Shown here: piece by piece, positions 9,055 through 64,000 of the stretch | Position numbering within the stretch: the first letter of the stretch is position 1 | Layout: the number at the start of each line of letters is the position of its first letter | From: Escherichia coli | GTDB taxonomy: Bacteria > Pseudomonadota > Gammaproteobacteria > Enterobacterales > Enterobacteriaceae | DNA length: 64,000 nt | Assembly (NCBI RefSeq): GCF_041248615.1 | Contig: NZ_CP158426.1 | Strand: one strand, 5' to 3' | Position numbers and translations under genes: made by a program | Notes under the pieces: model-generated | The model's database searches: none | Seen by the model: only the letters and a program-made list of their open reading frames with translations | Told to the model about the DNA's origin: nothing

Positions 9055-10491
9055 ATGAATCGTGATTCCTTTTATCCCGCCATCGCCTGTTTTCCGCTGT
9101 TACTGATGCTGGCCGGGTGTGCGCCTATGCATGAAACCCGCCAGGCGTTAAGCCAGCAAACGCCCGCTGCACAAGTTGACACCGCATTACCCACGGCGCT
9201 GAAAAATGGTTGGCCAGACAGCCAATGGTGGCTGGAGTATCACGATAATCAACTCACTTCCTTAATTAACAATGCACTACAGAACGCACCGGATATGCAG
9301 GTGGCTGAACAGCGCATTCAGCTAGCTGAAGCCCAGGCGAAGGCAATTGCTACTCAGGATGGTCCGCAGATCGACTTTTCTGCGGATATGGAGCGGCAAA
9401 AAATGTCGGCAGAAGGCTTAATGGGGCCGTTTGCTCTGAACGATCCGGCCGCAGGTACGACCGGTCCGTGGTACACCAACGGTACTTTTGGCTTAACGGT
9501 GGGCTGGCATCTCGATATCTGGGGAAAGAATCGGGCGGAGGTAACTGCTCGCCTGGGTACGGTTAAAGCACGAGCGGCGGAACGCGAGCAAACCCGCCAA
9601 TTGCTGGCTGGCAGCGTAGCCCGCCTGTACTGGGAGTGGCAGACCCAGGCGGCGTTAAACACGGTCTTGCAGCAAATCGAAAAAGAGCAGAACACTATTA
9701 TCGCGACCGATCGCCAGCTATATCAGAACGGGATTACTTCTTCAGTTGAAGGTGTGGAAACCGATATTAATGCCAGCAAAACCCGGCAGCAGCTCGACGA
9801 TGTCGCGGGGAAAATGAAAATTATTGAGGCACGGTTAAGCGCACTTACAAATCACCAGACAAAGGCATTGAAGCTTAATCCGGTCGCGTTGCCGAAAGTG
9901 GCAAGCCAGCTTCCTGATGAACTGGGGTACTCCTTACTGGCGCGGCGGGCAGATTTGCAGGCGGCGCACTGGTACGTTGAGTCATCGTTAAGCACTATTG
10001 ATGCGGCAAAAGCGGCATTTTATCCTGACATCAACCTGATGGCCTTCCTGCAACAGGATGCGTTGCACTTAAGCGATCTGTTCCGTCATTCCGCGCAGCA
10101 AATGGGCGTTACGGCAGGCCTGACGCTACCCATTTTCGATAGTGGTCGTCTTAACGCCAACCTCGATATCGCAAAAGCCGAAAGCAACTTGTCTATCGCC
10201 AGCTACAACAAAGCGGTGGTTGAAGCGGTGAATGACGTGGCGCGGGCAGCCAGTCAGGTTCAGACACTGGCGGAGAAAAACCAGCATCAGGCGCAAATTG
10301 AGCGCGATGCCTTGCGTGTAGTAGGTCTTGCGCAGGCGCGCTTTAACGCGGGCATCATTGCGGGTTCCCGCGTCAGCGAAGCCAGAATCCCCGCGCTGCG
10401 TGAGCGGGCCAATGGCCTGTTATTGCAAGGGCAGTGGCTGGATGCCTCCATTCAACTCACTGGTGCGTTGGGCGGGGGTTACAAACGTTGA
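9055..10491 (+). CDS. mdtQ: outer-membrane efflux lipoprotein (OMF/NodT family)
   Basis: ORF 8965-10491; start set at MNRDSF..., giving a lipobox LLMLAGC and 478 aa; OMF coiled-coil / beta-barrel architecture; intact single ORF. Confidence 0.8.
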   Translation: MNRDSFYPAIACFPLLLMLAGCAPMHETRQALSQQTPAAQVDTALPTALKNGWPDSQWWLEYHDNQLTSLINNALQNAPDMQVAEQRIQLAEAQAKAIATQDGPQIDFSADMERQKMSAEGLMGPFALNDPAAGTTGPWYTNGTFGLTVGWHLDIWGKNRAEVTARLGTVKARAAEREQTRQLLAGSVARLYWEWQTQAALNTVLQQIEKEQNTIIATDRQLYQNGITSSVEGVETDINASKTRQQLDDVAGKMKIIEARLSALTNHQTKALKLNPVALPKVASQLPDELGYSLLARRADLQAAHWYVESSLSTIDAAKAAFYPDINLMAFLQQDALHLSDLFRHSAQQMGVTAGLTLPIFDSGRLNANLDIAKAESNLSIASYNKAVVEAVNDVARAASQVQTLAEKNQHQAQIERDALRVVGLAQARFNAGIIAGSRVSEARIPALRERANGLLLQGQWLDASIQLTGALGGGYKR

Positions 10492-12757: not shown

Positions 12758-12930
12758 AAAGTTCTTTTGTGTTGCATTGCTGGCGTAAATGTCAGCAATG
12801 CAGCATTTCCTCACGATTCTCCTTTGACGATCGCACTTTTTGCTCGTTATGATGGCGTCGCTAGCCTCAGTAAATCCTTACTCCGGCGGTGCGCAACCCG
12901 TGCGCGTGAACCACTATCTGAATGCTCATC

Positions 12931-19182: not shown

Positions 19183-20340
19183 GTGACTTATTTCCGTATT
19201 AATCCTGTTCTGGCGCTGCTGCTGTTGCTGACGGCAATCGCAGCGGCGCTGCCGTTTATCAGTTACGCGCCTAATCGTTTAGTTTCGGGTGAGGGGCGTC
19301 ATCTCTGGCAGCTGTGGCCGCAAACGATCTGGATGCTGGTGGGCGTTGGTTGCGCCTGGATGACAGCCTGTTTTATTCCCGCTAAAAAAGGCAGCATTTT
19401 TGCACTCATTCTGGCGCAATTCGTCTTCGTATTGCTGGTGTGGGGAGCAGGAAAGGCGGCGACACAACTGGCACAAAATGGCAGTGCGCTGGCGCGTACC
19501 AGCCTCGGCAGTGGTTTCTGGCTGGCTGCGGCGCTGGCATTGCTGGCCTGTAGTGATGCCATCCGCCGAATCTCCACGCATCCGCTGTGGCGCTGGTTGT
19601 TGCATATGCAGATTGCCATCATTCCGCTGTGGTTGCTGTACTCCGGCACGCTTAACGATCTCTCGCTAATGAAAGAATACGCCAACCGTCAGGATGTGTT
19701 TGACGACGCGCTGGCACAACATCTGACGTTGCTGTTTGGTGCGGTGCTGCCTGCGTTAGTGATTGGTGTGCCGCTGGGCGTCTGGTGCTACTTTTCCACT
19801 GCGCGGCAGGGGGCGATTTTTTCTCTGCTGAATGTCATTCAGACCGTGCCTTCGGTGGCGCTCTTTGGCCTGTTGATTGCGCCGCTTGCCGCACTGGTTA
19901 CGGCCTTTCCGTGGCTGGGTAAGCTCGGCATAGCAGGAACCGGAATGACACCCGCACTGATTGCGCTGGTGCTCTATGCCTTGCTGCCGCTGGTGCGCGG
20001 CGTGGTAGTCGGCTTGAACCAGATCCCGCGCGATGTGCTGGAGAGCGCCAGAGCGATGGGCATGAGCGGGGCGCAGCGATTCCTGCATGTTCAGTTACCG
20101 CTGGCGTTACCGGTATTTCTGCGTAGCCTGCGGGTGGTGATGGTGCAAACCGTCGGCATGGCGGTGATTGCGGCGTTAATCGGTGCAGGCGGTTTTGGGG
20201 CGCTGGTTTTCCAGGGGCTGCTAAGCAGCGCCATTGATTTAGTATTGCTGGGGGTGATCCCGGTAATTGTTCTGGCGGTGCTGATCGATGCGCTGTTCGA
20301 TTTGCTTATCGCACTGCTGAAGGTGAAACGTAATGATTGA
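19183..20340 (+). CDS. yehY: glycine betaine ABC transporter permease
   Basis: 385 aa multi-TM permease; 8-nt overlap with yehX. Confidence 0.85.
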
Positions 20341-33146: not shown

Positions 33147-33576
33147 ATATTCATCCCTGAAATGTATTAATGAAATAAACGATATTTTACGCGCAATAAA
33201 TGTTTGGCGCATTAGTTGTTTGAGCGAAAAATATCTGGAAAGCAGATCACAGTAAATAAAAAAACCTGCTGGTGAGGCAGGTTCTTTTATTTACTACAGT
33301 GACGCTAACTTGCTGATTGTGCAACATTTCGTACCAACGAATAAATTATAACCATATCCACACTCCATTGCAATTCAGTGAATGAGATTTATAATCCTGC
33401 CCGTTGGGAGGTTGTGCCGGATCGGACCAATTTTAAGTCCTGGCTGCTGGACGGGTGGTGCCGCAGGCGGTGCCCTGATCCGGAGAGCAACGTTTCGTAC
33501 CAACATACGTAAACCAGTATCGACAGGCAGTGTAAGGGTAAGGTGCTGGTGTTGCGCTCCTTAATAAGGAGAGCGG

Positions 33577-52519: not shown

Positions 52520-52600
52520 AACCAAACGACTCGGGGTGCCCTTCTGCGTGAAGGCTGAGAAATACCCGTATCACCTGATCTGGATAATGCCAGCGTAGGT
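52520..52600 (+). ncRNA. TPP riboswitch aptamer (thi-box) of the thiM leader
   Basis: AACCAAACGACTCGGGGTGCCCTTCTGCGTGAAGGCTGAGAAATACCCGTATCACCTGATCTGGATAATGCCAGCGTAGG matches the recalled E. coli thiM TPP aptamer; similarity ends at about 52600. Confidence 0.85.
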
Positions 52601-52654
52601 TGCCAACATTCTGATTAGTATTCATGTGGTTACATTTCTTTTTGTCCGTGTGTA

Positions 52655-53986
52655 ATGCACCTAATGTACAAAAAGAGCGTAAACATGAGGTACAAAACTC
52701 TTCCATACACGTTTCAAAGAAACGGTAATTACTATCTACAGATTCGGCTTTCGAATGGTCGGATGTATAAAAAATCACTTCTCACTGACAGCTATCGTGA
52801 AGTCTCTGCTTTGATGATTGGTGTTGCTCCGTACATTCCTTTTGTTAAATCATTAGCCATCACAATCCCGATGTTTGATGCCTTTGTTTCAAACCTGATT
52901 ATGTCAAAACTTAGGGCTGTAAAAGTTCCGCTGCTATCACATCAGTCGGTAATTACCCCTGCTACATTCGAGGAACCAGCGACACAAGCCGAACCGCAAA
53001 ACATGCTAACTCTTTCTGATGCGTGGGCTATGTATAAAGCGGAAAAGGGTAAAACATGGACAAAGTCGATCTCAAGGGCGAATGAGCGTTACATGGAAGT
53101 CTTGATGGTTGTCTTGGGAGAGACAACTGACGTAGTTGCGATTTCTAAGCAGGACATCAAGCAGGTGATGGAAGTTGTTGAGAATTTGCCTAAGCGTGTT
53201 GTCCAACCGTATCGCTCAATGAACATCCAGCAACTGATTGAATGTGATGATGTATCACCGAATGAGTTAGTAGGAGTGGAAGCCATTCATAAGCATCTCA
53301 AAATCTACAAATCGCTTTTCAAGACTTTTCTAACAGAAAACAAAGATATTTTGATTAAATCCCCAACTGATGGGGTAGTAGCAGCACCATCTAAAGCAAG
53401 GTTTGGAGCATACAGTTCGGCGGAGATGAAGAAGTTTGTAGAGTGGGCACTTAAGCAGCCAGATGGCTGGCAGAAGTGGATAACATTGTTGTTGGCATAC
53501 ACAGGAGCCAGAAGGGGAGAAATTGCCAAACTGGAAAAATCACAAATAAAATATGATGAGGATAGCCATCGGTATTATTTCCTGATTGCAGAAGGAGGGC
53601 AGGGGAAAACCGAAAATGCTACCCGACAAGTAGTGATACACCCTAAGTTGATCGAATGGGGTTTCATGGAATACGTTGATCGCCAGTGGAAAGAACGGAT
53701 TTTTTCAGAAGTGGCTGGTACAAACATGACGAAGATCGGTAAAGAATTTGCTGATGTGCGTGACCAGCTTGACATTCCGTACTTAGACGATTTTGGACAG
53801 CGGAGGCTTTTGCATAGCATTCGTCATTCTGTTTGCTCTACTGCGATGGCTGGATGGGTAAAGAACATCTTGCATCTGCAACAAACAGTAGGCCATGAGA
53901 AAAGTGGAGGGATCACTAAACGCTACTTACATACGTTCCCACTATCATCAATTTGTTATGTTATTGATGGGATTAGTTGGGTCTGA
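52655..53986 (+). CDS. tyrosine-type site-specific integrase (island integrase)
   Basis: C-terminal catalytic box LHSIRHS...GH...Y (R-H-R-Y tyrosine recombinase motif); true start may be the Met at 52685. Confidence 0.75.
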   Translation: MHLMYKKSVNMRYKTLPYTFQRNGNYYLQIRLSNGRMYKKSLLTDSYREVSALMIGVAPYIPFVKSLAITIPMFDAFVSNLIMSKLRAVKVPLLSHQSVITPATFEEPATQAEPQNMLTLSDAWAMYKAEKGKTWTKSISRANERYMEVLMVVLGETTDVVAISKQDIKQVMEVVENLPKRVVQPYRSMNIQQLIECDDVSPNELVGVEAIHKHLKIYKSLFKTFLTENKDILIKSPTDGVVAAPSKARFGAYSSAEMKKFVEWALKQPDGWQKWITLLLAYTGARRGEIAKLEKSQIKYDEDSHRYYFLIAEGGQGKTENATRQVVIHPKLIEWGFMEYVDRQWKERIFSEVAGTNMTKIGKEFADVRDQLDIPYLDDFGQRRLLHSIRHSVCSTAMAGWVKNILHLQQTVGHEKSGGITKRYLHTFPLSSICYVIDGISWV

Positions 53987-54203: not shown

Positions 54204-55106
54204 GTGGATATGTTACTACCAATACGAGTTCATAAACGATTTCTAACTTTATTTAAGACTTTGCAAATTGACGATTGCCCACCGCAATCAACTTTAAATA
54301 TTCATGTACTTAATATCGAAAGCAATGAATTTATATACTGTAAATTAGTTGAAGAATTACGTGACATAATAATTACTTATGTACATTCGAATAGAAGGCT
54401 TGAGGAGTTTAAGGAAAGTTATCCTTCGTATAGCCCTAAACCTTTTTTCGAAGCAATACAAAAATTTCGCAATTATACGTCAAACGAAGGTGAGTTAGGT
54501 GAACTGCTTTTATACGCTTTTCTTGAAACAGGACTAAATGCTCCGAAATTACTTTCCAAAATGCAATTGAAAACAGATTCTAATGATTACATTAAGGGTT
54601 CTGATGGTGTACATCTGTTAGAATTAGATGATGGTTATCAATTAATATTTGGAGAATCAAAGCTCTATGCCGATCTTTTAGAAGGTGCTCGAGAAGCGTT
54701 TGATTCTATTTTAGATTTTAAAAGTAATGGAATGGCATTTGAAAGAGGGCTGATAGATACACACGTTATAAATGAAATGGTTTCAGAAGAAGGTTATGAG
54801 AAAATAAAATCAATTCTTCTTCCTTCTTCTGGCGATGATGGGCCAGATCTTGATTTATCCTTTGGTATATTTCTTGGTTTTGAATTGAAAATAGATAGCT
54901 CACAGTTATCATTGAAAAACAAAGAGTTTAGAGATTGGGTTAATGAGTCCGTGAAACAACATGCTACTCGCGTGGTCAGTACGATACGAAGGAAAATTAT
55001 TAATCATAAATTATATGGTCACGAATTCCACATATATATAGTTCCTTTTACCGATATTGATGTTACACGAAAAAAATTAATTCATGAAATGCTAACAATT
55101 AAGTGA
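54204..55106 (+). CDS. PD-(D/E)xK-like putative nuclease, HamA-like (Hachiman-type effector candidate)
   Basis: 300 aa; motif ELDDGYQLIFGESK (D...ExK); stop overlaps the start of the downstream helicase gene by 4 nt; low GC, island context. Confidence 0.5.
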   Translation: MDMLLPIRVHKRFLTLFKTLQIDDCPPQSTLNIHVLNIESNEFIYCKLVEELRDIIITYVHSNRRLEEFKESYPSYSPKPFFEAIQKFRNYTSNEGELGELLLYAFLETGLNAPKLLSKMQLKTDSNDYIKGSDGVHLLELDDGYQLIFGESKLYADLLEGAREAFDSILDFKSNGMAFERGLIDTHVINEMVSEEGYEKIKSILLPSSGDDGPDLDLSFGIFLGFELKIDSSQLSLKNKEFRDWVNESVKQHATRVVSTIRRKIINHKLYGHEFHIYIVPFTDIDVTRKKLIHEMLTIK

Positions 55107-57691
55107 ACACTATGAATGAATTAAATTCAAGTAAAAACATTCATTTGGCAGCTCGTCTTGCAGATGATGCTTTTGAAAGTGCTTATTTTAAAGAAATCAA
55201 TAAGTTTATAAGTGGTTTATACAATTACAGTTTATTTAACTGCGATTCAGATGTTAGTCTCTCCGAGAGTGATAACAATAAAATAGCACACGCTTTGCGT
55301 TTTGCAGATATATTTTCACATTCTTCAAAAGAAAATCATAGATCATGTGCATTTGAAATTATAAGTAGAATAGCCTTATTAAAAAAACATGATCCTTATT
55401 TTAAATTTATAGGTACTGCTGTTATTAATCGGCTTGGGGTTTATGCAGCAGAAAAACTCATATCAAAAGGGGTAAAATTACCCTTAGATAGAGAAGTTGA
55501 TTCTATTATTAAAAAATCAGTTCAGAAAACAGATGAAGATGGAGTATATTTCACTGATAAACAACATGAGTTATACAAACTTTTAAAAAGTAGCAAAACA
55601 ATTAGTTTTGCTGGTCCCACTTCGATGGGAAAGTCATTTGTTATTAATGCATACATTAAGGAAATAACTCTTAAAAAAGAGCTTAAAAATATAGCTTTAA
55701 TTGTTCCTACACGGGCTTTAATAAGCCAAAATGCACTTAAGTTAAAAATTGATATTGCATTGTATAAGAATGAAAGCCCTTATAAAGTTGTTACGACATC
55801 CTACATTATTAATGGTGATGAAAGTAAAAATAAAGGCTATATTTTTATTCTCACCCCAGAAAGGCTGGTTAGTCTCATAAGCACTATTCCTGGACTAATG
55901 ATTGATTATGTTTTTGTAGATGAAGCTCAAAAGTTAACAACAAAAAATGATTCGAGGAGTCTTGTTACTTATTCAGCTATAGAGCAAACAATTAGTAAAA
56001 ATCCTGAGGCAAGATTATTCTTCTCTTCACCTAATTTATCTAATCCTGAAATATTTAATATTTTGTTTGATAGAAAAGACGCTTCGGTATATAGAAATAC
56101 AGAAGGTGCAACTACTCAGAATATGTATTTTATTGATCTTTTAAATAGCAGCTTTAGCTATGTTAATACCGAGAAAAGGACGCTTGAAAAAATAGATGAG
56201 ATCTCTAATACTTACACGAATACAAATGATGTTATCTATAAATTAAATAATGGTAAAAGTAAAATAATTTATTGTGGGGGGATAGAAAGCACGCTTGAGA
56301 GAACACGTAGCTTTATCAATTATCTCAAAATTAATAAGAAAAAAAGAAAGCATTTAAATTTAGAAATATCTTCTGAGATAAGAAACTTTGTTCATGATAA
56401 CTATGAACTTGCAGAAGCCATCAACTATGGTGTTGCTTTCCACTTTGGAAACTTGCCTCAATCGATTCGAGATTTAATTGAGCATCATTTCAAAATAGGA
56501 AATATTGACTATCTATTCTGTACATCAACCCTACTTGAGGGAGTCAATTTACCTGCAAGATCCGTATTTATTCTTACGCATAAAAAAGGCCCCAGTCCAT
56601 TAGAGTCGGTTGATTTTTGGAATCTGGCTGGGAGAGCTGGGCGATTATCTATGGAATTGTCAGGGGATATTTTTTGTATTAGGGATGATAATAAGCTTTG
56701 GAATAAAAAAGCTGTTGATAATATCCTTCTGTCTGACAAAAATAACATTTCATTAAAGCCAAGCTTCTATATTGAAGACGAAAAAAGATTGAACGATTTA
56801 CACCATATAATTACGACTGGTAAAACAGGGAATATTAAAAATGCTGAGTTCCTTAGAACTTTAGGAGATATGATAAGAATAGACACTCTGAGGGATTCTA
56901 AAGAACTTCCTCTTATTAGTTATTTCCAAAGCAGTGGAAAATCAGAAATTTTGTTAAGTGCAGAAAAAAGCACTGAAAATATTACCATGCCAATGAATAT
57001 CCTTTTGGCAAATAGTCATATTGCGATTGATTCGCAGTATCATGCTTTTAAAAAAATAAAAAGCCTTACAGTTAAGGAACTGAAATTATCATGGCAGCCT
57101 ACATACGAAGAAATTAAAGAAAAATTGAATTTGATATTCGATATTTACCAAGTTGAAAAGTTTGCAACAGGTAGAGAACGTCTTTATTTAAATTCAATTC
57201 CATATTATGCAGTATTACTGTTTCAATGGATTCGTGGAAATAGTCTACAGGAAATTATCTCGGGGGCAATTGCTTATAGAAAGAACAAAAGTATATATAT
57301 TAAAAATACACCTGTTCTTTTTGACAGCGAAAACCCAGCTCATTTAACTGCATTAGTTAATGAAACTATAAAAGACATTGAGTTGCGTGTAGGTTACCAG
57401 TTACAAAATTATTTTTCACATTACTGTCAGCTTCTGAATTATGTGTTACAAGGAAATCCAGGGGCAAACTGGTCTCAGTTCATTGAGTTTGGCTCTAATG
57501 AGCCAATAGTATGGCACCTACAAATGATGGGCTTTTCAAGGGATAGTGCAGTTTTTCTCAAGAAGAATTTTTCAAAACATCTTAAACTTGATAATGAAAT
57601 GAATAAACTCATCATAATGGATAAGGAACTGATCAAGCGTTCTTTCAAAAAAGATGGACTACATTACTTAGAAATCCAATCGTTATTATAA
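55103..57691 (+). CDS. SF2 helicase, HamB-like (Hachiman-type helicase candidate)
   Basis: 862 aa; Walker A AGPTSMGKS, Walker B FVDEAQK, SSP motif, motif V TSTLLEGVNLP and motif VI AGRAGR. Confidence 0.55.
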   Translation: MNTMNELNSSKNIHLAARLADDAFESAYFKEINKFISGLYNYSLFNCDSDVSLSESDNNKIAHALRFADIFSHSSKENHRSCAFEIISRIALLKKHDPYFKFIGTAVINRLGVYAAEKLISKGVKLPLDREVDSIIKKSVQKTDEDGVYFTDKQHELYKLLKSSKTISFAGPTSMGKSFVINAYIKEITLKKELKNIALIVPTRALISQNALKLKIDIALYKNESPYKVVTTSYIINGDESKNKGYIFILTPERLVSLISTIPGLMIDYVFVDEAQKLTTKNDSRSLVTYSAIEQTISKNPEARLFFSSPNLSNPEIFNILFDRKDASVYRNTEGATTQNMYFIDLLNSSFSYVNTEKRTLEKIDEISNTYTNTNDVIYKLNNGKSKIIYCGGIESTLERTRSFINYLKINKKKRKHLNLEISSEIRNFVHDNYELAEAINYGVAFHFGNLPQSIRDLIEHHFKIGNIDYLFCTSTLLEGVNLPARSVFILTHKKGPSPLESVDFWNLAGRAGRLSMELSGDIFCIRDDNKLWNKKAVDNILLSDKNNISLKPSFYIEDEKRLNDLHHIITTGKTGNIKNAEFLRTLGDMIRIDTLRDSKELPLISYFQSSGKSEILLSAEKSTENITMPMNILLANSHIAIDSQYHAFKKIKSLTVKELKLSWQPTYEEIKEKLNLIFDIYQVEKFATGRERLYLNSIPYYAVLLFQWIRGNSLQEIISGAIAYRKNKSIYIKNTPVLFDSENPAHLTALVNETIKDIELRVGYQLQNYFSHYCQLLNYVLQGNPGANWSQFIEFGSNEPIVWHLQMMGFSRDSAVFLKKNFSKHLKLDNEMNKLIIMDKELIKRSFKKDGLHYLEIQSLL

Positions 57692-57697
57692 AACTGC

Positions 57698-57727
57698 CGA
57701 ATCAGAGTCTTTTATTGATTCTGATTC
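57698..57727 (+). terminator. hairpin downstream of the helicase gene (no clear U-tract)
   Basis: CGAATCAGA-(loop)-TCTGATTCG. Confidence 0.35.
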
Positions 57728-57999
57728 GCACTTATATAGTTAAATCAAAAGGAGCATTAAAATTTTTCAGTAGCGATTTAGTATGCTAAATCGCTGCATA
57801 ACGAATCTGCTTCTAAATCTTGATTAAGTGTTTCGAACTGCCTTGATTGTTTATTGCTACACTTTATAATTAATCGCAACACACAAAACAATACAATGTA
57901 GGCAGTTGCACAGAATTAATTACAGGCACATTATGGATATCGAGAGGATTCGAACAGTTTTAAACTGCAAGCCCTTTGACTTTATCCCCTCCTACTATA

Positions 58000-58575
58000 T
58001 CAGCGTTTGATGCCGCTAATACTGGCAAGCATTTCTTTCTTCACACGAAAAACTGTAGCCCTGCCGCAATCACATAACTTTGCTATCTCGTCTGGTGTAT
58101 TCTTCCCGGCCTGTAACATATCGATAATCTTGTTATGTAGCTCTTTGTTCTTTTGCTTGCCCTTGTACTTCTTAGCCTCTTTAGCAAGAGCAATCCCCTC
58201 ATTGCGACGAGATGCGATCATACCCCGCTCAAATTCTGCAGCGGCTCCCATCATGGTTAGGATAAGGCGTGATTGTGGGGAATTATCAAAACTCATAGAG
58301 TTTGCAAGGAATTGAACAGTGATTCCACGAGCCACGAGGTTATCAATCATTTCCAGCAAATCGCGGGTATTACGTGCAAGGCGATCAATCGAGTGAGTAA
58401 CGAGCGTGTCACCTTCGCGGAGGTGTGAAAGCAGGTTCAACAATTCAGGTCTTTCGCTGGTGGACTTACCTGATTCTTTCTCTGCCACAATTTTGTCACA
58501 AACAGGTTCCAGCACTGCCAACTGACGCTCAAGATTTTGATCCTTTGTTGAGACTCTCGCGTAACCAAAAATCAT
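58000..58575 (-). CDS. serine recombinase (resolvase/invertase family)
   Basis: N-terminal catalytic domain MIFGYARVSTKDQ with catalytic Ser, C-terminal HTH; 191 aa. Confidence 0.85.
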   Translation of the reverse strand: MIFGYARVSTKDQNLERQLAVLEPVCDKIVAEKESGKSTSERPELLNLLSHLREGDTLVTHSIDRLARNTRDLLEMIDNLVARGITVQFLANSMSFDNSPQSRLILTMMGAAAEFERGMIASRRNEGIALAKEAKKYKGKQKNKELHNKIIDMLQAGKNTPDEIAKLCDCGRATVFRVKKEMLASISGIKR

Positions 58576-58589
58576 TTTCCTGCCCTCAC

Positions 58590-58665
58590 TTACGTGAAAA
58601 GTATCATTTGAATTTACTTAATGATACAGTATCATTTAAATGCATTCAACATCTAAATGATACTA
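58590..58665. promoter_or_regulatory. res-like recombinase binding site (imperfect inverted repeats) upstream of the serine recombinase gene
   Basis: repeated TATCATTT(A/G)AAT half-sites in inverted orientation (GTATCATTTGAAT...ATGATACA; TATCATTTAAATG...ATCTAAATGATAC). Confidence 0.5.
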
Positions 58666-59125
58666 AACGAGACGAGAAAAGCGAGTATCGTTAGGGAGTA
58701 CCCAAAAGAGATTTTTGATCGTGCGTTTTTTAGTCAATGTAGGGTTAGTGAAAAGTTCAGTACCGAGATCTGAGTTCACGGCATTTTGTCGACGGGGTTG
58801 AACCTGATTAGGCGAACGAGATTTTAAATCAGGCGGAATAAAACAAGTTGTACTTTTATCTGAGTAAAAGATCCCTTTAACTTTTTAGTCAGAAATCGTG
58901 ATACTAGGGGTTTGGTTATTTTGTGTCCTTAAGGCCAGTACTTTTAGCGAGGACGAAAAAACGGCCTACATGAGAACGCTTACAGTAACTTAAGTATATT
59001 ATCCAAAAAGTCACTTAACTTAAATCAATTTGGATGCAAAATCGCCACACTTTGCAAGTGAACACATACCGGGCAACAAGCAAATAAAAAAGGCCACTTT
59101 CGCGACCTTGTACCAGTACAAACAC

Positions 59126-59485
59126 TCATTCAGAACGATCAAGTACCATATATGCTGGCTGACACATGCTGCCCCGCTCCTGTAGCCAGTAGTAATCAAG
59201 ATCGGCAACACGCACGTCCAATCCAGAATCTACACGGTTGATCTGTAACCGTAGCCCTACAGTATCCTTGTACGATAAACCAGATTTAACATTGTATTTG
59301 TACTTAACACCGTTTTCCTGTTCAAACTGTTTAAGGAAAGGCGTCATTTGTTTCTGAATTTCTTTCAAACAAATAACCTCATTATCAATAGCAAAGGGGG
59401 GTTCTGTTTTTCCATCAGGTACAGCAGCCTGTAAATGAAAGGAAGTACTCAACAATAACAGCATTGCAACAGAAGTCTTTTTCAT
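59126..59485 (-). CDS. small secreted protein of unknown function
   Basis: 119 aa; cleavable signal peptide MKKTSVAMLLLLSTSFHLQA; 43 nt downstream of the membrane protein gene. Confidence 0.6.
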   Translation of the reverse strand: MKKTSVAMLLLLSTSFHLQAAVPDGKTEPPFAIDNEVICLKEIQKQMTPFLKQFEQENGVKYKYNVKSGLSYKDTVGLRLQINRVDSGLDVRVADLDYYWLQERGSMCQPAYMVLDRSE

Positions 59486-59528
59486 TTTAATTCCTTATTA
59501 AAGAACAGTACATTATATTTCAATGGAC

Positions 59529-60569
59529 TTAATAACAATATTTTATATTTCCTTCGGGTTTTCTCATGCATTTAATTCCTTCAGGAATATAATCAGTTAC
59601 GGGAGCAGGTCTGGCATCAGGTCTTGAAAGACGATTGGATATAGAAGACAACAGACTGAAAACACACTCATTAAATGATTTTTGATATTTATTTTTTTCA
59701 TAAAAGTACTGCATGGTGATTTTATCTCTTTCGTATTGCAATTCTTTGCCAAGCTGAATCCTATCCATATCAATTCCATTTCTCATAGCATTAAATCTTT
59801 CGTTCAATAAATTAAATTGAGATTTATTCCATTCATTTAAAGGAAATAAAGAATTGTTAAGCCTTTGCCTACAATTAGATTGCTCGATAGCTGACATGTA
59901 TTCTTTCATACTAACGCCAATATCTAAGTATGTGAGTTGTCCAGCAGTTCTATCAACTGAGTTATTAGGGTAAGATTTAATTTCAGTAAGTATTGACTCT
60001 GTTAATACTGCATTTTCTTCTAAATCTTTGCTAATAGTTATTTGAGCTTGTTCTCTTTTATCCTTATCAAATATTGAAATGTATTTCTTTACTATATCCT
60101 GATTAGCTTTCTCGGCTGCTACTAACGCATCTTGAACCTTCTTTTCCGCCGCTTTAACTCGTTGTTCTTCTACAAATTTCGCGTAGTCATCAGTATTTGT
60201 AATGTGATTTTCACGAGCGATAGAAAACTCTTTACTATCTTTAAAACCAAGTTTTTGTGCTCTGGCTCCATCGCTTGAAGATCGGGCAGAACTTGCCACG
60301 AAAGCGAGCACAATGATCAGTACAGGAACCGTATAATTATTAACGAGTTTATAGGGTAAGAACTTCGCTTTAAGCGTACCATAACCCAAAACAGCCCAGC
60401 CTATCGCGGCAGTACTTGCCAGTAGCTGGCACAATCCAGCGACGGAAAGCATGATTACCGACCAGAAGCCTGTACCGACTGCGAAAAGATCACCAAATTT
60501 CTCCATTGACGCAAGGAATAAAAACACTCCCCAAATGCCATAAAATCCTATTTTCAAATATTTACTCAC
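59529..60569 (-). CDS. 3-TM membrane protein with large charged coiled-coil-like C-terminal domain, unknown function
   Basis: 346 aa; three N-terminal hydrophobic helices followed by a K/E/Q-rich soluble domain. Confidence 0.6.
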   Translation of the reverse strand: MSKYLKIGFYGIWGVFLFLASMEKFGDLFAVGTGFWSVIMLSVAGLCQLLASTAAIGWAVLGYGTLKAKFLPYKLVNNYTVPVLIIVLAFVASSARSSSDGARAQKLGFKDSKEFSIARENHITNTDDYAKFVEEQRVKAAEKKVQDALVAAEKANQDIVKKYISIFDKDKREQAQITISKDLEENAVLTESILTEIKSYPNNSVDRTAGQLTYLDIGVSMKEYMSAIEQSNCRQRLNNSLFPLNEWNKSQFNLLNERFNAMRNGIDMDRIQLGKELQYERDKITMQYFYEKNKYQKSFNECVFSLLSSISNRLSRPDARPAPVTDYIPEGIKCMRKPEGNIKYCY

Positions 60570-60779
60570 CGCAATTATCCTTTAATAATTTTCCAAATCG
60601 ATGGTTCGTTCTATTTGTATTATCGACAATAATTCGTTTGCCTTTAGGTAGATCCCTTAAAAAGGAATCCCCCCAAAATTTATAGATTAGCAGTTGTACC
60701 ACTCTCACTGTTTTGTCACTCCCATTATCTTCTCTCAGGTCAAAAGTACGGACTTAAAGCCGTCCGTGTTCAGGTGCTC

Positions 60780-60900
60780 AAGAGTAGCACGCATATCAAT
60801 AAATGATCGATAAAAACGATCAATTAATGGCTTATTGATCGCTATAACCTATCAATGACTATTAATTCAATACAAATCAATAGGTAAAATCGATCAAGAG
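60780..60900. repeat. AT-rich cluster of ATCAAT/ATTGAT repeats with GATC sites (iteron/origin-like or protein-binding array)
   Basis: five ATCAAT/ATTGAT copies and four GATC sites within about 120 bp, in an ORF-free region. Confidence 0.45.
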
Positions 60901-61552
60901 GATTCGTCATCCATGAAAGGGGTTATGTATCTGATTTCAATACAGGGAGTATTAGCGATACCATCACGCAAACGCTCTTAAAGCGTAGCTACGGCGTTTT
61001 GTAGGGTTTTTGGTCATTCATGTGTGTCAGTAATGAACATCGCATTCAGGGGCTTCCTGTGCGTTTTGTCCGAAACACCATCATGAAGGGGGACAGATCG
61101 GATCGGGGTCGCTTCGCTCTGGTCAGTACTGGATAGTTCTTTTCCAGTAACTGAAACCGCAGATACCCCACTAAGTACACAAAGGAATTATTTGTAGAAT
61201 AAGTAATGAAATAACAGTCAGTTATGTACTTACTGACAGAACTAAAAACGCGATTAGGTTCGCTCTGTCAGTGACCGAAGGGAACGCAACAGTAGAATCT
61301 AATCCAGCGAACAGTACACGCAAGCGGGTGCTGTTTAATTGTTTTATCTATGTAAACAATGGGATAGCTATCAAGTACTCACTGCGTGAGCACTCTCACT
61401 AACTACCCGAAACAGTTCGCTTGCTTCGCCGCTCCTACTTTCAGGTAGTTAATTCGCTTTCGCTCGTTGTGATGTCCGAAATTTATTACCTATAGTATTA
61501 TAAGGTATTATTTTCCGGACATTTATGTATTTTTATGATGGTGTTCTGGACA

Positions 61553-63028
61553 TCATTTTTTGCTTTTTTGTACTTCCTTTTCGTATTTGTTCCACATAGC
61601 CTTTTGCTCTTCGGGACTGAGTGCTGTATTACCACTGGCAAGAAACACCTTGAACGCTTCTAACTCAAGCCCTGGGTTGCGGCTTTTCCAGCGGCGAAAA
61701 CGCTTAGCGTGATTATCATCAAGAGTGAAACGCTTTTGCTTATTCTTTGAACCTTGCGGCCTGCCTCTCGACCTCTGCTCATCATCAATACCGATATCTA
61801 TATACTCAATATTATCTGTAAGAGATCTGGCTTGCCATTCATCAAAAACATAAACAGTCTGTGTTTCAGTACTGTCAAAATCCCTTGAAATTCCTCGTAG
61901 TACGAACTGGTGTAAACTTTCGTACTCCCTCGCAACATGTATCGCCTCGCCGTCAATCTCAAAGAACAATTCGCACTGTTTAGCCTCTGTTTCAGAGGGA
62001 CGCATACAAGCGAGCCAGACGCACGTGAGCAAGTGTTGGTACTGGTTAAACCCTCTGGCATCCGGGCTTATCTCTGTGCCGTTTTTGAGGCTCTGAGAAT
62101 CGCTTTTGTTCTTCGTCCAGTAGAAATCCTGTCCCTCAAGTTTTTTATCAATAAATGAGTATATTTTTTGTACTTTATCAGGGTTATTAGTCTTCCATGT
62201 CTTCGATAGTTTTTGATTTTTTGAGAAGTAATAAACCTTTAATCTGTCTTTGAGAGCTGTTTTTCGTGTCAGTAATCCTCCAAGTTCAGTACTTTCAAAG
62301 AGTTCTTTATTGCCTTTATAGATCAATGAATTTTCGAAATTAGCTCCGAGAAAGGTGATTGATACGTCTTTGTACTTACTGAGATCTTTCCATGCGGTAA
62401 TATTAAGCTGTTCCTTTTTCGCATCGGTAAAGTACTCATTATTCATGATGAACATATCATTTTCGTTAATTGCTGGTAGCTGGTTCAAAATATTCTTCAG
62501 TACTTCCCCTTGTATTTCTGGTTTTCTTTCTGCCGCAATATACATATTTTTATCATCTAATGTCAGTACATTGTGTATTAATGAATTAAGAATTGTATTT
62601 TTTATATTAGTATCACCCTCATTAATATTCTGAAAAGAGTGAAAATTAGTAACGTCGTCAATATAAATATTACAGTCAGATAACAATTCAGGAGGAATTT
62701 TGAAAAACGTTTTATCTGTTATGAGTAATGTTTTATTACTTCCAGATGAAAGAAAGTTAATAACTGAATTAATAACACTTTCATCTTTTGGTACTGTATC
62801 TGTAATTATATACTCGCAATTATTGATTTGCTTTGCTGTCTGCTTAATAAGTTCTTGAGTGTTCTGTACTAAAATATATTTTTCAGTACTGTTATTGATT
62901 ATATTGCATATAGCAGTAGTTTTACCTGAACCACAAGGGGCGGAGACATACTTAAATTTATTATAAATAGGTGTGGGATTAATCATTTGTACACGCTCCA
63001 TATTGATTAATGTAGAAAGGTCAGCCAT
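61553..63028 (-). CDS. P-loop NTPase with C-terminal AT-hook (RGRP-GSKNK) DNA-binding tail, unknown family
   Basis: 491 aa; Walker A APCGSGKTT near the N-terminus, candidate Walker B NIYIDDV; C-terminal RSRGRPQGSKNKQKR matches the AT-hook consensus. Confidence 0.6.
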   Translation of the reverse strand: MADLSTLINMERVQMINPTPIYNKFKYVSAPCGSGKTTAICNIINNSTEKYILVQNTQELIKQTAKQINNCEYIITDTVPKDESVINSVINFLSSGSNKTLLITDKTFFKIPPELLSDCNIYIDDVTNFHSFQNINEGDTNIKNTILNSLIHNVLTLDDKNMYIAAERKPEIQGEVLKNILNQLPAINENDMFIMNNEYFTDAKKEQLNITAWKDLSKYKDVSITFLGANFENSLIYKGNKELFESTELGGLLTRKTALKDRLKVYYFSKNQKLSKTWKTNNPDKVQKIYSFIDKKLEGQDFYWTKNKSDSQSLKNGTEISPDARGFNQYQHLLTCVWLACMRPSETEAKQCELFFEIDGEAIHVAREYESLHQFVLRGISRDFDSTETQTVYVFDEWQARSLTDNIEYIDIGIDDEQRSRGRPQGSKNKQKRFTLDDNHAKRFRRWKSRNPGLELEAFKVFLASGNTALSPEEQKAMWNKYEKEVQKSKK

Positions 63029-63359
63029 TCCAGTGTCTGGCCTTTCGTTGTTTTAGTTATTAGTCTTTTTGAGTTGCGACAACTGCAAGAGAATGTTTAT
63101 AAACAAGTGAAATAAGCAGTTTTACCGCCTCAAAAGCTACAGTCAGTTTCGTAATTATTTTCGAAAGCATCGTAAATTTCACTTCGCTATCTTCTATGCA
63201 AAAATTAGCAGCCTGAGGTATTTAATGATTGAGATGTGGCCTGTTGATAAGAGGGTTTGTATTGCTTGTTCTGCTCTTTGTTAATTTGTGACTTATTCCT
63301 TTCACAATGATCGGCTATGTTTGATAACTCTGTTAGGAAATCACCTATGGCTACCATAT

Positions 63360-64000
63360 TGGATTTGCCCCTATATTTCCAGACACCTGTTATCACTTAA
63401 CCCATTACTGGCCTGCTGCCGCAGATATTCCCGTGGCGAGCGATAACCCAGTGCACTATGCGGATGCCATTCGTTATAATGCTCGAACGCCTCTGCAAGG
63501 TTCTTTGCTGCCGTTAACCCGTCTGGTTTAGGCATGATACTGATGTAGTCACGCTTTATCGTTTTCACGAAGCTCTCTGCTATGCCGTTACTCTCCGGAC
63601 TCCGCACCGCCGTGTTCTTCGGTTCAAGCCCCAATATCCGGGCAAACTGCCGTGTTTCATTAGCCCGGTAGCATGAACCATTATCCGTCAGCCACTCTAC
63701 TGGAGACGCCGGAAGCTCGTTGCCGAAGCGGCGTTCCACCGCTCCCAGCATGACGTCCTGTACTGTTTCACTGTCGAAGCCGCCCGTAGTGACTGCCCAG
63801 TGCAGTGCCTCACGGTCACAGCAGTCCAGCGCGAACGTGACTCGCAGTTTTTCTCCGTTATCACAGCGGAACTCGAACCCGTCAGAGCACCATCGTTGAT
63901 TGCTTTCTTTCACGGCCACTTTGCCAGTATGTGCCCGTTTCGATGGCGGTACAGCGGTTTTTCGCTCAAGCAACAGCGCATTCTGGCGCATGATCCGGTA
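63360..64000 (-). mobile_element. IS2 (IS3 family), partial; right terminal inverted repeat at about 63360, element runs past the window end
   Basis: terminus TGGATTTGCCCCTATATTTCCAGACA matches the recalled IS2 end; encoded protein matches the recalled IS2 InsD (OrfB) C-terminus. Confidence 0.85.
63371..64000 (-). CDS. insD: IS2 transposase OrfB (InsD), 3' portion; 5' end beyond the window
   Basis: translation ...[39 protein letters not shown]...[19 protein letters not shown] matches recalled InsD (DDE integrase core). Confidence 0.85.

Follow-up and report, generated by a model that had tools for sequence, protein, structure and literature searches.

The window analysed here, a stretch of 64,000 nucleotides of Escherichia coli DNA, carries the genes apbC–yehEDCBA–rcnBAR followed by an island of approximately 11 kb. 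The island comprises a tyrosine integrase gene, hamA and hamB, a gap that harbours the motif studied here, a gene for a small serine recombinase and a group of three genes termed the trio (Table 1). Positions 57000-59000 of the window are 100% identical to E. coli strain KE55 and others. The hamAB cargo was recognized by PADLOC (HamA1, 2.4e-120; HamB1, 8e-296) and by Pfam (HamA, 1e-62), and its G+C content is 0.29-0.35 versus 0.43 in the recombinase gene. hamB and the recombinase gene are convergent, with stop codons at 57691 on the plus strand and at 58000 on the minus strand, and the motif sits in the gap of 308 bp between them.

Table 1. Features of the island in the window (positions of the 64-kb stretch; a dot marks a feature without strand).
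Feature	Position	Strand	Remarks
TPP riboswitch copy, island left end	52522-52617	+	Rfam RF00059, 58 bits, above gathering threshold
Tyrosine integrase	52655-53986	+	Pfam Phage_integrase; phrog_1
Hachiman type I cargo	54204-57691	+	hamA 54204-55106, hamB 55103-57691
Spacer, thiM-site islands only	57761-57934	.	hairpin 57771-57798; separates element from cargo
Flagged motif	57934-57957	-	direct sequence reading; T-loop likeness at chance level
Whole element, ~70 bp	57935-58003	-	two boxes, purine-rich stretch, variable hairpin-prone middle
3' box ATCCTCTCGATATC	57936-57949	-	consensus ATCC(T/C)nTnGATATC
5' box GATATAG	57995-58001	-	invariant core A.ATAG; overlaps recombinase TGA (58000-58002)
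Small serine recombinase, 191 aa	58000-58575	-	Resolvase N-terminal domain and HTH_7
Operator/res-like array	58601-58712	-	upstream of recombinase, ends at cassette left boundary
Trio core	59126-63028	-	hyp119, hyp346, 491-aa P-loop/helicase-like protein
hyp119	59126-59485	-	signal peptide
hyp346	59529-60569	-	membrane protein
491-aa P-loop/helicase-like protein	61553-63028	-	phrog_2467, 1e-38; weak CyRepA1 (plasmid-replication) match

Several further features of the window are recorded here as side observations. The segment of about 1 kb between hyp346 and the gene of the 491-aa protein (60570-61552) has no open reading frame of at least 60 aa and no tandem repeats; islands at three chromosomal sites share it with approximately 100% identity, and an origin or a non-coding RNA could reside in it. 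An IS2 transposase gene (InsD/OrfB, 63371-63991) occupies the right edge of the window, within the right part of the island, and the annotation of KE55 has no IS at the corresponding position. Two Rfam matches at gathering level, an OrzO-P antitoxin RNA at 33258-33331 on the minus strand (88.8 bits) and a Peptidase-S11 RNA motif at 12846-12926 on the plus strand (72.8 bits), are unrelated to the motif.

In KE55, a TPP riboswitch copy is present at each end of the island (L001 15526-15621 and 26852-26948), the second of which precedes thiM. Since two copies flank the island, the integrase uses the thiM leader as its target rather than a tRNA, and the true attachment region is a duplicate of the thiM leader TPP riboswitch. 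Related islands occupy at least five sites in E. coli and are also found in other Enterobacterales, with integrases that differ between the sites. Sister islands at the thiM site carry TIR and PDC-S60 (L002) or ATPase (L073) cargo, islands at the 5' end of yggR (L003, L005) carry a large serine recombinase, an island at the 5' end of ppdD (L004) carries another one, and ybhA (L075) and ffs (L125) are further sites. The small serine recombinase is directly flanked by anti-phage systems both here, by Hachiman, and in the sister islands, whose cargo includes a ThsB-like TIR with PDC-S60, an NsnB/AriA-like ATPase, PDC-S20, a CBASS cyclase with a 2TM effector, mREase_II, a KAP NTPase and restriction genes. 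In the ppdD-site island of E. coli FDN-9 (L004 5477-7857), a 425-aa and a 365-aa cargo gene, both without a match in PADLOC, lie between the recombinase gene and the element described below, and the pair is a candidate undescribed defence pair because of this neighbourhood.

The starting point of the study was a motif on the minus strand, CTGTTCGAATCCTCTCGATATCCA (57934-57957; TGGATATCGAGAGGATTCGAACAG on the plus strand), in which the initial annotation had seen the T-loop and acceptor 3' end of a tRNA and, by extension, a former attachment site. The quoted string is truly present, and its likeness to a tRNA is at chance level. The window contains two occurrences of the consensus GTTCRANTCC, with 0.83 expected, and at least two were obtained in 20 of 100 shuffles. 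With G53 fixed, only two of the five T-stem positions pair (AACTG versus CCTCT), and positions 74-76 read ATA, so that the CCA comes two bases too early and is out of register. ARAGORN detected no tRNA or tmRNA anywhere in the 64-kb window and no tRNA gene in 31 homologous loci bearing the element, and Rfam (E<=10) gave no tRNA or tmRNA match on the 4-kb region or on slices of 38, 96 and 106 nt, of which the 38-nt and 96-nt ones would permit truncated matches. A search of 5,426 complete E. coli genomes with a 40-nt motif query (E<=10) for a matching tRNA 3' end in the host matched nothing but 12 sister islands; none of these matches is a tRNA gene, and no annotated feature lies beneath any of the 12. 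The T-loop-like TTCGAA is itself not conserved, being replaced in homologues by CTGAATCC, CAGAATCC, ATGTATCC, GAGCATCC and others; the motif core ATCCTnTnGATATC shows no variation among 30 distinct homologues. A past integration event that targeted a tRNA and left its degenerate 3' end behind would agree with the T-loop-like appearance of GTTCGAATCC in the window and GGTTCAAATCC in L004, and with a GATATAG 46 nt upstream that pairs at six of seven positions with the CGATATC of the 3' box in the manner of an acceptor stem. Given the register, the negative ARAGORN, Rfam and host-genome searches, and an attachment site that is the thiM riboswitch, the likelihood of such an origin is negligible, and we rejected it. 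The tRNA likeness of the motif is coincidental, and a T-loop-like decamer by itself is not evidence for a tRNA-derived attachment site.

The motif is instead part of a conserved element of about 70 bp that starts at the stop codon of the recombinase gene. Relatives were collected from 100,044 scanned species genomes and by a pattern scan of metagenomes, and copies were found in E. coli, Pantoea, Rahnella, Raoultella, Mangrovibacter, Edaphovirga, Enterobacter, Providencia and metagenomes, that is, in a limited taxonomic range of mostly Enterobacterales. An nhmmer profile matches the window at 58003-57931 (E=1.3e-17), with one match per island. Sixteen columns do not vary among 30 distinct copies (A.ATAG ... 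ATCC.T.GATATC): positions A4, A6, T7, A8 and G9 in the 5' box (alignment A2) and columns 55-58, 61 and 63-68 in the 3' box. The spacing between the boxes is 45 nt in 29 of the 30 copies, and the same number are of equal length. In contrast to the invariant boxes, the intervening 45 nt, the adjacent gene remnant retained at some loci and the 3' end of the recombinase gene are strongly divergent. All of the approximately 20 genuine copies from the metagenome pattern scan adjoin a small serine recombinase gene, whereas about 15 pattern-only matches, equal to the chance expectation, do not. Searches for homologues of the element or of the core in plasmids and phages found none, and the phage matches were confined to the IS2 at the window edge. 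One contig classed as viral in IMG/VR (L123, IMGVR_UViG_3300013741_000055) carries, at 9688-10437, a recombinase of a second clade together with the element; either the island is mobilised in a satellite-like manner or the contig is misclassified.

The 3' box has one exact copy in the window, and pattern and profile searches of the islands yielded no second copy of the element. An inverted match with three mismatches at 59756-59772, considered as a second copy flanking the cargo, is hyp346 coding sequence and is absent in other genera. An intrinsic terminator, defined as a G+C-rich hairpin followed by a T-run, was not detected at the element in our scan; in L019 and L100, a separate strong intrinsic terminator lies 3' of the element. 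Candidate sites picked by eye in or near the element (a mini-ORF, sigma-70, sigma-28, IHF, DnaA-box and Xer/dif-like sites) were discarded as restricted to a single lineage or poor in match, none of them being conserved across the flank families. A good sigma-70-like promoter match on the plus strand at 57843-57870 (TTGATT-16-TATAAT, 10/12), located in the spacer of thiM-class islands only, is directed across the element and enters the recombinase gene in antisense.

The recombinase belongs to the resolvase/invertase family (Pfam PF00239, 2.5e-36; phrog_125 DNA invertase, 5e-58), and the nearest solved structures, the gamma-delta and Tn3 resolvases, Sin/Bin3 and Gin, are roughly equidistant at about 1e-22 to 1e-24. 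The array upstream of its gene contains four exact AATGATAC half-sites, arranged as GTATCATTTA-N15-TAAATGATAC and GTATCATT-N10-AAATGATAC, plus GATAC-N21-GTATC, so that the GTATC/GATAC half-sites form dyads of 27, 35 and 31 bp. Within the island, AATGATAC half-sites are confined to 58601-58663. The proximal 140 bp or so upstream of the gene are conserved in all relatives, from E. coli to Aeromonas and Providencia, and likely represent the binding region of the recombinase; L007 and L019 are without the gene-proximal dyad.

Element and recombinase can be separated. The boxes of the element differ from the half-site AATGATAC, some close recombinase relatives (L011, L014 and L015) are without the element, and the element persists beside frameshifted or truncated recombinase genes in L019 and L020. 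It is also kept beside a clade-2 recombinase of approximately 30% identity, in four metagenomic loci and in the E. coli island at the ffs site, where the operator is a different one (TGAACCA/TGGTTCA) and a decaying remnant of the old gene 3' end has been retained. Because the element persists with another recombinase and another operator, the boxes are probably not read by the helix-turn-helix domain of the clade-1 enzyme. A separate observation concerns the last 35 nt or so of the recombinase gene, which in L003, L005 and relatives contain a perfect palindrome of 14 bp, TGCCAGTACTGGCA (L005 ~20108-20121), within the non-domain C-terminal tail of class C recombinases. The core of this palindrome, CAGTACTG, is still visible in the non-coding remnant of clade-2 loci, and the version in the window is degraded (GCCAGTATTAGC).

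The array, the recombinase gene and the element make up a cassette of approximately 780 bp (57935-58712) with two precise ends, GATATC| and |AATCTCTTTTGGG. About 12 unrelated flank families abut the left boundary, |AATCTCTTTTGGGTACTCCC, and the 3' flanks of 33 distinct copies of the element, which start directly behind GATATC, fall into 13 unrelated families; on the inner side of the element, 27 of the 33 5' flanks form one homologous family. With such sharp ends and unrelated flanks on both sides, the unit is discrete. The unrelated DNA joined at the exact outer edge of the element is cargo, an integrase module (a tyrosine integrase lies 1.4-4 kb beyond the element in eight loci), an att arm or a neighbouring gene. 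With respect to the trio, the cassette can lie either way round (L016, L017, L018 and L011 compared with the window). Cargo is likewise placed variably: beyond the element in the window, L002 and L073, between stop codon and element in L004 and L017, at -140 from the start codon in L012 and L075, and at about -330 to -400 in L003. In L004 and L017, approximately 2 kb of cargo part the gene from the element, of which boxes and orientation are kept, and in L004 this cargo is oppositely oriented. Being detached and intact there, the element is not simply the 3' UTR of the recombinase gene.

The initial annotation had further proposed that the motif marks a junction between an integrase-helicase module and a module of recombinase and trio. 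This idea is partly right. In 11 E. coli genomes, homology to the yggR-site islands breaks at 57935-57937, which is a genuine mosaic boundary; the partition between the modules needs two corrections. Between the islands at thiM, yggR and ppdD, the trio region (~58770-63068) is about 100% identical and the 5' end of the recombinase gene 97-100%, whereas identity drops to 79-83% at the 3' end of the gene and in the element and is 78-91% in the integrases. This fall across the gene places the crossover of recent exchanges inside the recombinase gene or shortly upstream of it; the element, including the motif, therefore travels with the cargo and integrase side. The cargo boundary of the thiM class, moreover, does not lie at the motif. 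It is found at 57770 or 57906, i.e. 30-165 nt beyond the element, with homology of class B genomes starting at 57761-57770 and that of L083 and L108 at 57906. Judged from these comparisons, the motif is the terminal box of a selected, single-copy element at a recurrent, nucleotide-precise junction.

Comparison of the yggR-site island with the empty K-12 site places the crossover at a CT (L005 20266-20267) about 66 nt beyond the element. The element consequently adjoins an att arm and is not part of the att core, and we rejected the possibility that it represents the att core of islands with large serine recombinases. A direct-repeat relation of the two cassette ends was discarded as well, as only seven of 13 invariant positions match. 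Neither an empty site nor a circular junction was found in our searches; additional E. coli genomes with hyp119-hyp346, considered as empty sites, turned out to hold a clade-2 recombinase and the element.

The ends of the element are complementary to each other, GATAT with ATATC and the purine run with ATCCTYTC, with 84% of the cells able to pair (A1). RNAalifold predicted no consensus structure from 15 or 30 sequences, and three named helices displayed weak or absent covariation. For the best named structure, 72% of the cells are paired and covariation reached 0.204 versus 0.178, a level attained by 22 of 500 shuffles and, according to the tool, within what relatedness alone can give. Individual copies nevertheless folded better than shuffled sequences: across the 30 copies, z scores averaged -1.5, with 13 below -1.64; a perfect stem of 17 bp is present in L093, and the copy in the window, folded with its flanks, is unremarkable (z = -0.9). 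The 3' arm is usually AATCCTYTC with GATATC left unpaired, and the register of its partner varies by lineage. In our reading, the element is an imperfect palindrome in which arm and tail are conserved, and not an established RNA fold.

A link between small serine recombinases and defence loci has been described recently, in that these genes serve as 'RADS' markers of such loci (Andersen et al. 2025, bioRxiv, PMC12632615). The island studied here resembles that setting, with a recombinase of the resolvase/invertase type of ~190-210 aa directly beside changing anti-phage systems, and differs from it by the operator-like array, the conserved downstream element and the precise cassette ends. The bait recombinase used in PMC12632615 is from Enterococcus and may not be orthologous to the clade discussed here. 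The same study states that the role of the defence-associated recombinase is unknown, and a search of its text for inverted repeats, recombination sites or res sites found no mention of them. The main text of a catalogue of E. coli defence hotspots (PMC10121019) contains no thiM, yggR, ppdD, rcnR or serine recombinases. Our literature search uncovered no account of these islands or of the element, which is thus an apparently undescribed conserved element at the end of a recombinase cassette carried by defence islands.

The res sites of Tn3/gamma-delta and Sin and the hix and gix sites of Hin and Gin are recognized by proteins of the same family, and the upstream array is res- or operator-like. 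The element differs from these sites by its position downstream of the gene, its other boxes and the lack of a second direct or inverted copy. Crossover sites such as res site I, hix and gix consist of two inverted half-sites of ~12 bp around a 2-bp centre, and no such 12-2-12 dyad was found in or around the 3' box; without dyad and partner copy, the element lacks the features of a crossover site of serine recombinases. In architecture only, it resembles the attC sites of integrons, which are imperfect palindromes of ~60-140 bp: inverse boxes at the ends, a variable middle, an adjacent recombinase gene and boundaries of captured genes that fall at the outer box are common to both. In contrast to integrons, there is no tyrosine recombinase of the IntI type, no RYYYAAC/GTTRRRY boxes and no cassette array, and the element occurs once per island and not once per cassette. 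With tRNA attachment sites it shares a short conserved sequence at a module boundary near an integrase, and it differs from them by the absence of all tRNA features and by an island that uses the thiM TPP leader.

We tentatively favour, with a probability of roughly 45%, the reading that the element is a cis-acting DNA site, either an att-like junction or recombination site or a docking site for a protein. Random rearrangement followed by trimming would hardly produce a dozen independent joins at the same nucleotide, which points to a junction or recombination site, and the boxes of the element have been kept through a swap of the recombinase, insertion of cargo and variation of the middle part. 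The recognised feature would be the hairpin-prone arm followed by the unpaired GATATC tail; new modules would be joined precisely at the element, and homologous recombination within the recombinase gene would shuffle the two halves of the island. Against a junction site speak boxes unlike the half-sites of the recombinase and conserved beside a recombinase of different specificity, the single copy per island, the lack of a partner site and of a 12-2-12 dyad, the failure to find an empty site or a circular junction, the close relatives without the element (L011, L014 and L015) and the thiM-class boundary, which is 30-165 nt away; the support for the favoured reading is comparative throughout. 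In principle, sharp edges could also result from selection that trims the flanks to a functional element of another kind. It is distinctly unlikely that the whole unit of ~780 bp acts as a gene-capture platform, a counterpart of the integron based on a serine recombinase, with defence and integration modules joined site-specifically at both ends.

Other explanations place the function elsewhere or deny it. The boxes might be conserved for a function in RNA, the element being a structured 3'-UTR segment of the recombinase mRNA that could act as a stabilising hairpin, as a processing or protein-binding site, or as a small RNA derived from the 3' UTR. In 27 of 33 copies the element directly follows the stop codon on the sense strand, which is consistent with this, as are the terminators of L019 and L100, on account of which the element would be transcribed, the negative shift of the folding z scores, many G-U pairs, which as RNA would be tolerated on this strand only, and the covariation of the best structure. 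This covariation is nevertheless within the range of relatedness, a consensus fold is lacking and the pairing register differs by lineage, there is no match in Rfam, and the element lies ~2 kb from the gene in L004 and L017, with cargo of opposite orientation in the former. Given that a function in RNA also leaves unexplained why 13 unrelated flanks start at one nucleotide, we consider it rather unlikely. An inverted repeat with a 3' arm and a sharp boundary 6-7 nt later, in which the stem varies in sequence and the tail is conserved, is also reminiscent of hairpin-plus-tail sites for the processing of single-stranded DNA. Were the element a packaging site, or a nick site of the oriT or rolling-circle type, in an island that excises and replicates, strand transfer at the nick would yield precise junctions, and both the helicase-like island protein with its weak plasmid-replication match and the copy on a viral-classed contig (L123) would fit. 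This is improbable, as no gene for a relaxase or HUH-type protein was recognised in the island with Pfam, PHROGs and NCBIfam, the helicase-like gene is present in only nine of 30 element-bearing loci, and neither plasmids nor phages yielded homologues of the element. The element might, finally, be a neutral relic, namely what has not yet decayed of the 3' flank of an ancestral recombinase gene, hitch-hiking with the gene without a function of its own. It does nearly always adjoin the recombinase gene, remnants of old gene 3' ends are likewise kept in clade-2 loci, and the taxonomic range is limited. A relic is quite improbable in view of boxes that are 100% invariant next to strongly diverged sequence, a length fixed in 29 of 30 copies, and the maintenance of the element after gene swaps and the insertion of cargo.

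The locus provides testable DNA features for one clade of defence-associated recombinases, namely the array, the element and the two cassette ends, so that orphan defence-associated recombinases gain a concrete DNA feature. If small serine recombinases did belong to a gene-capture platform, their value as markers of defence loci in bacteria at large would be accounted for. If the element is not a recombination site, it is still a landmark for delimiting cargo hotspots; if it is a recombination or junction site, it would offer a mechanism for the swapping of cargo among islands with quite different integrases and chromosomal sites.
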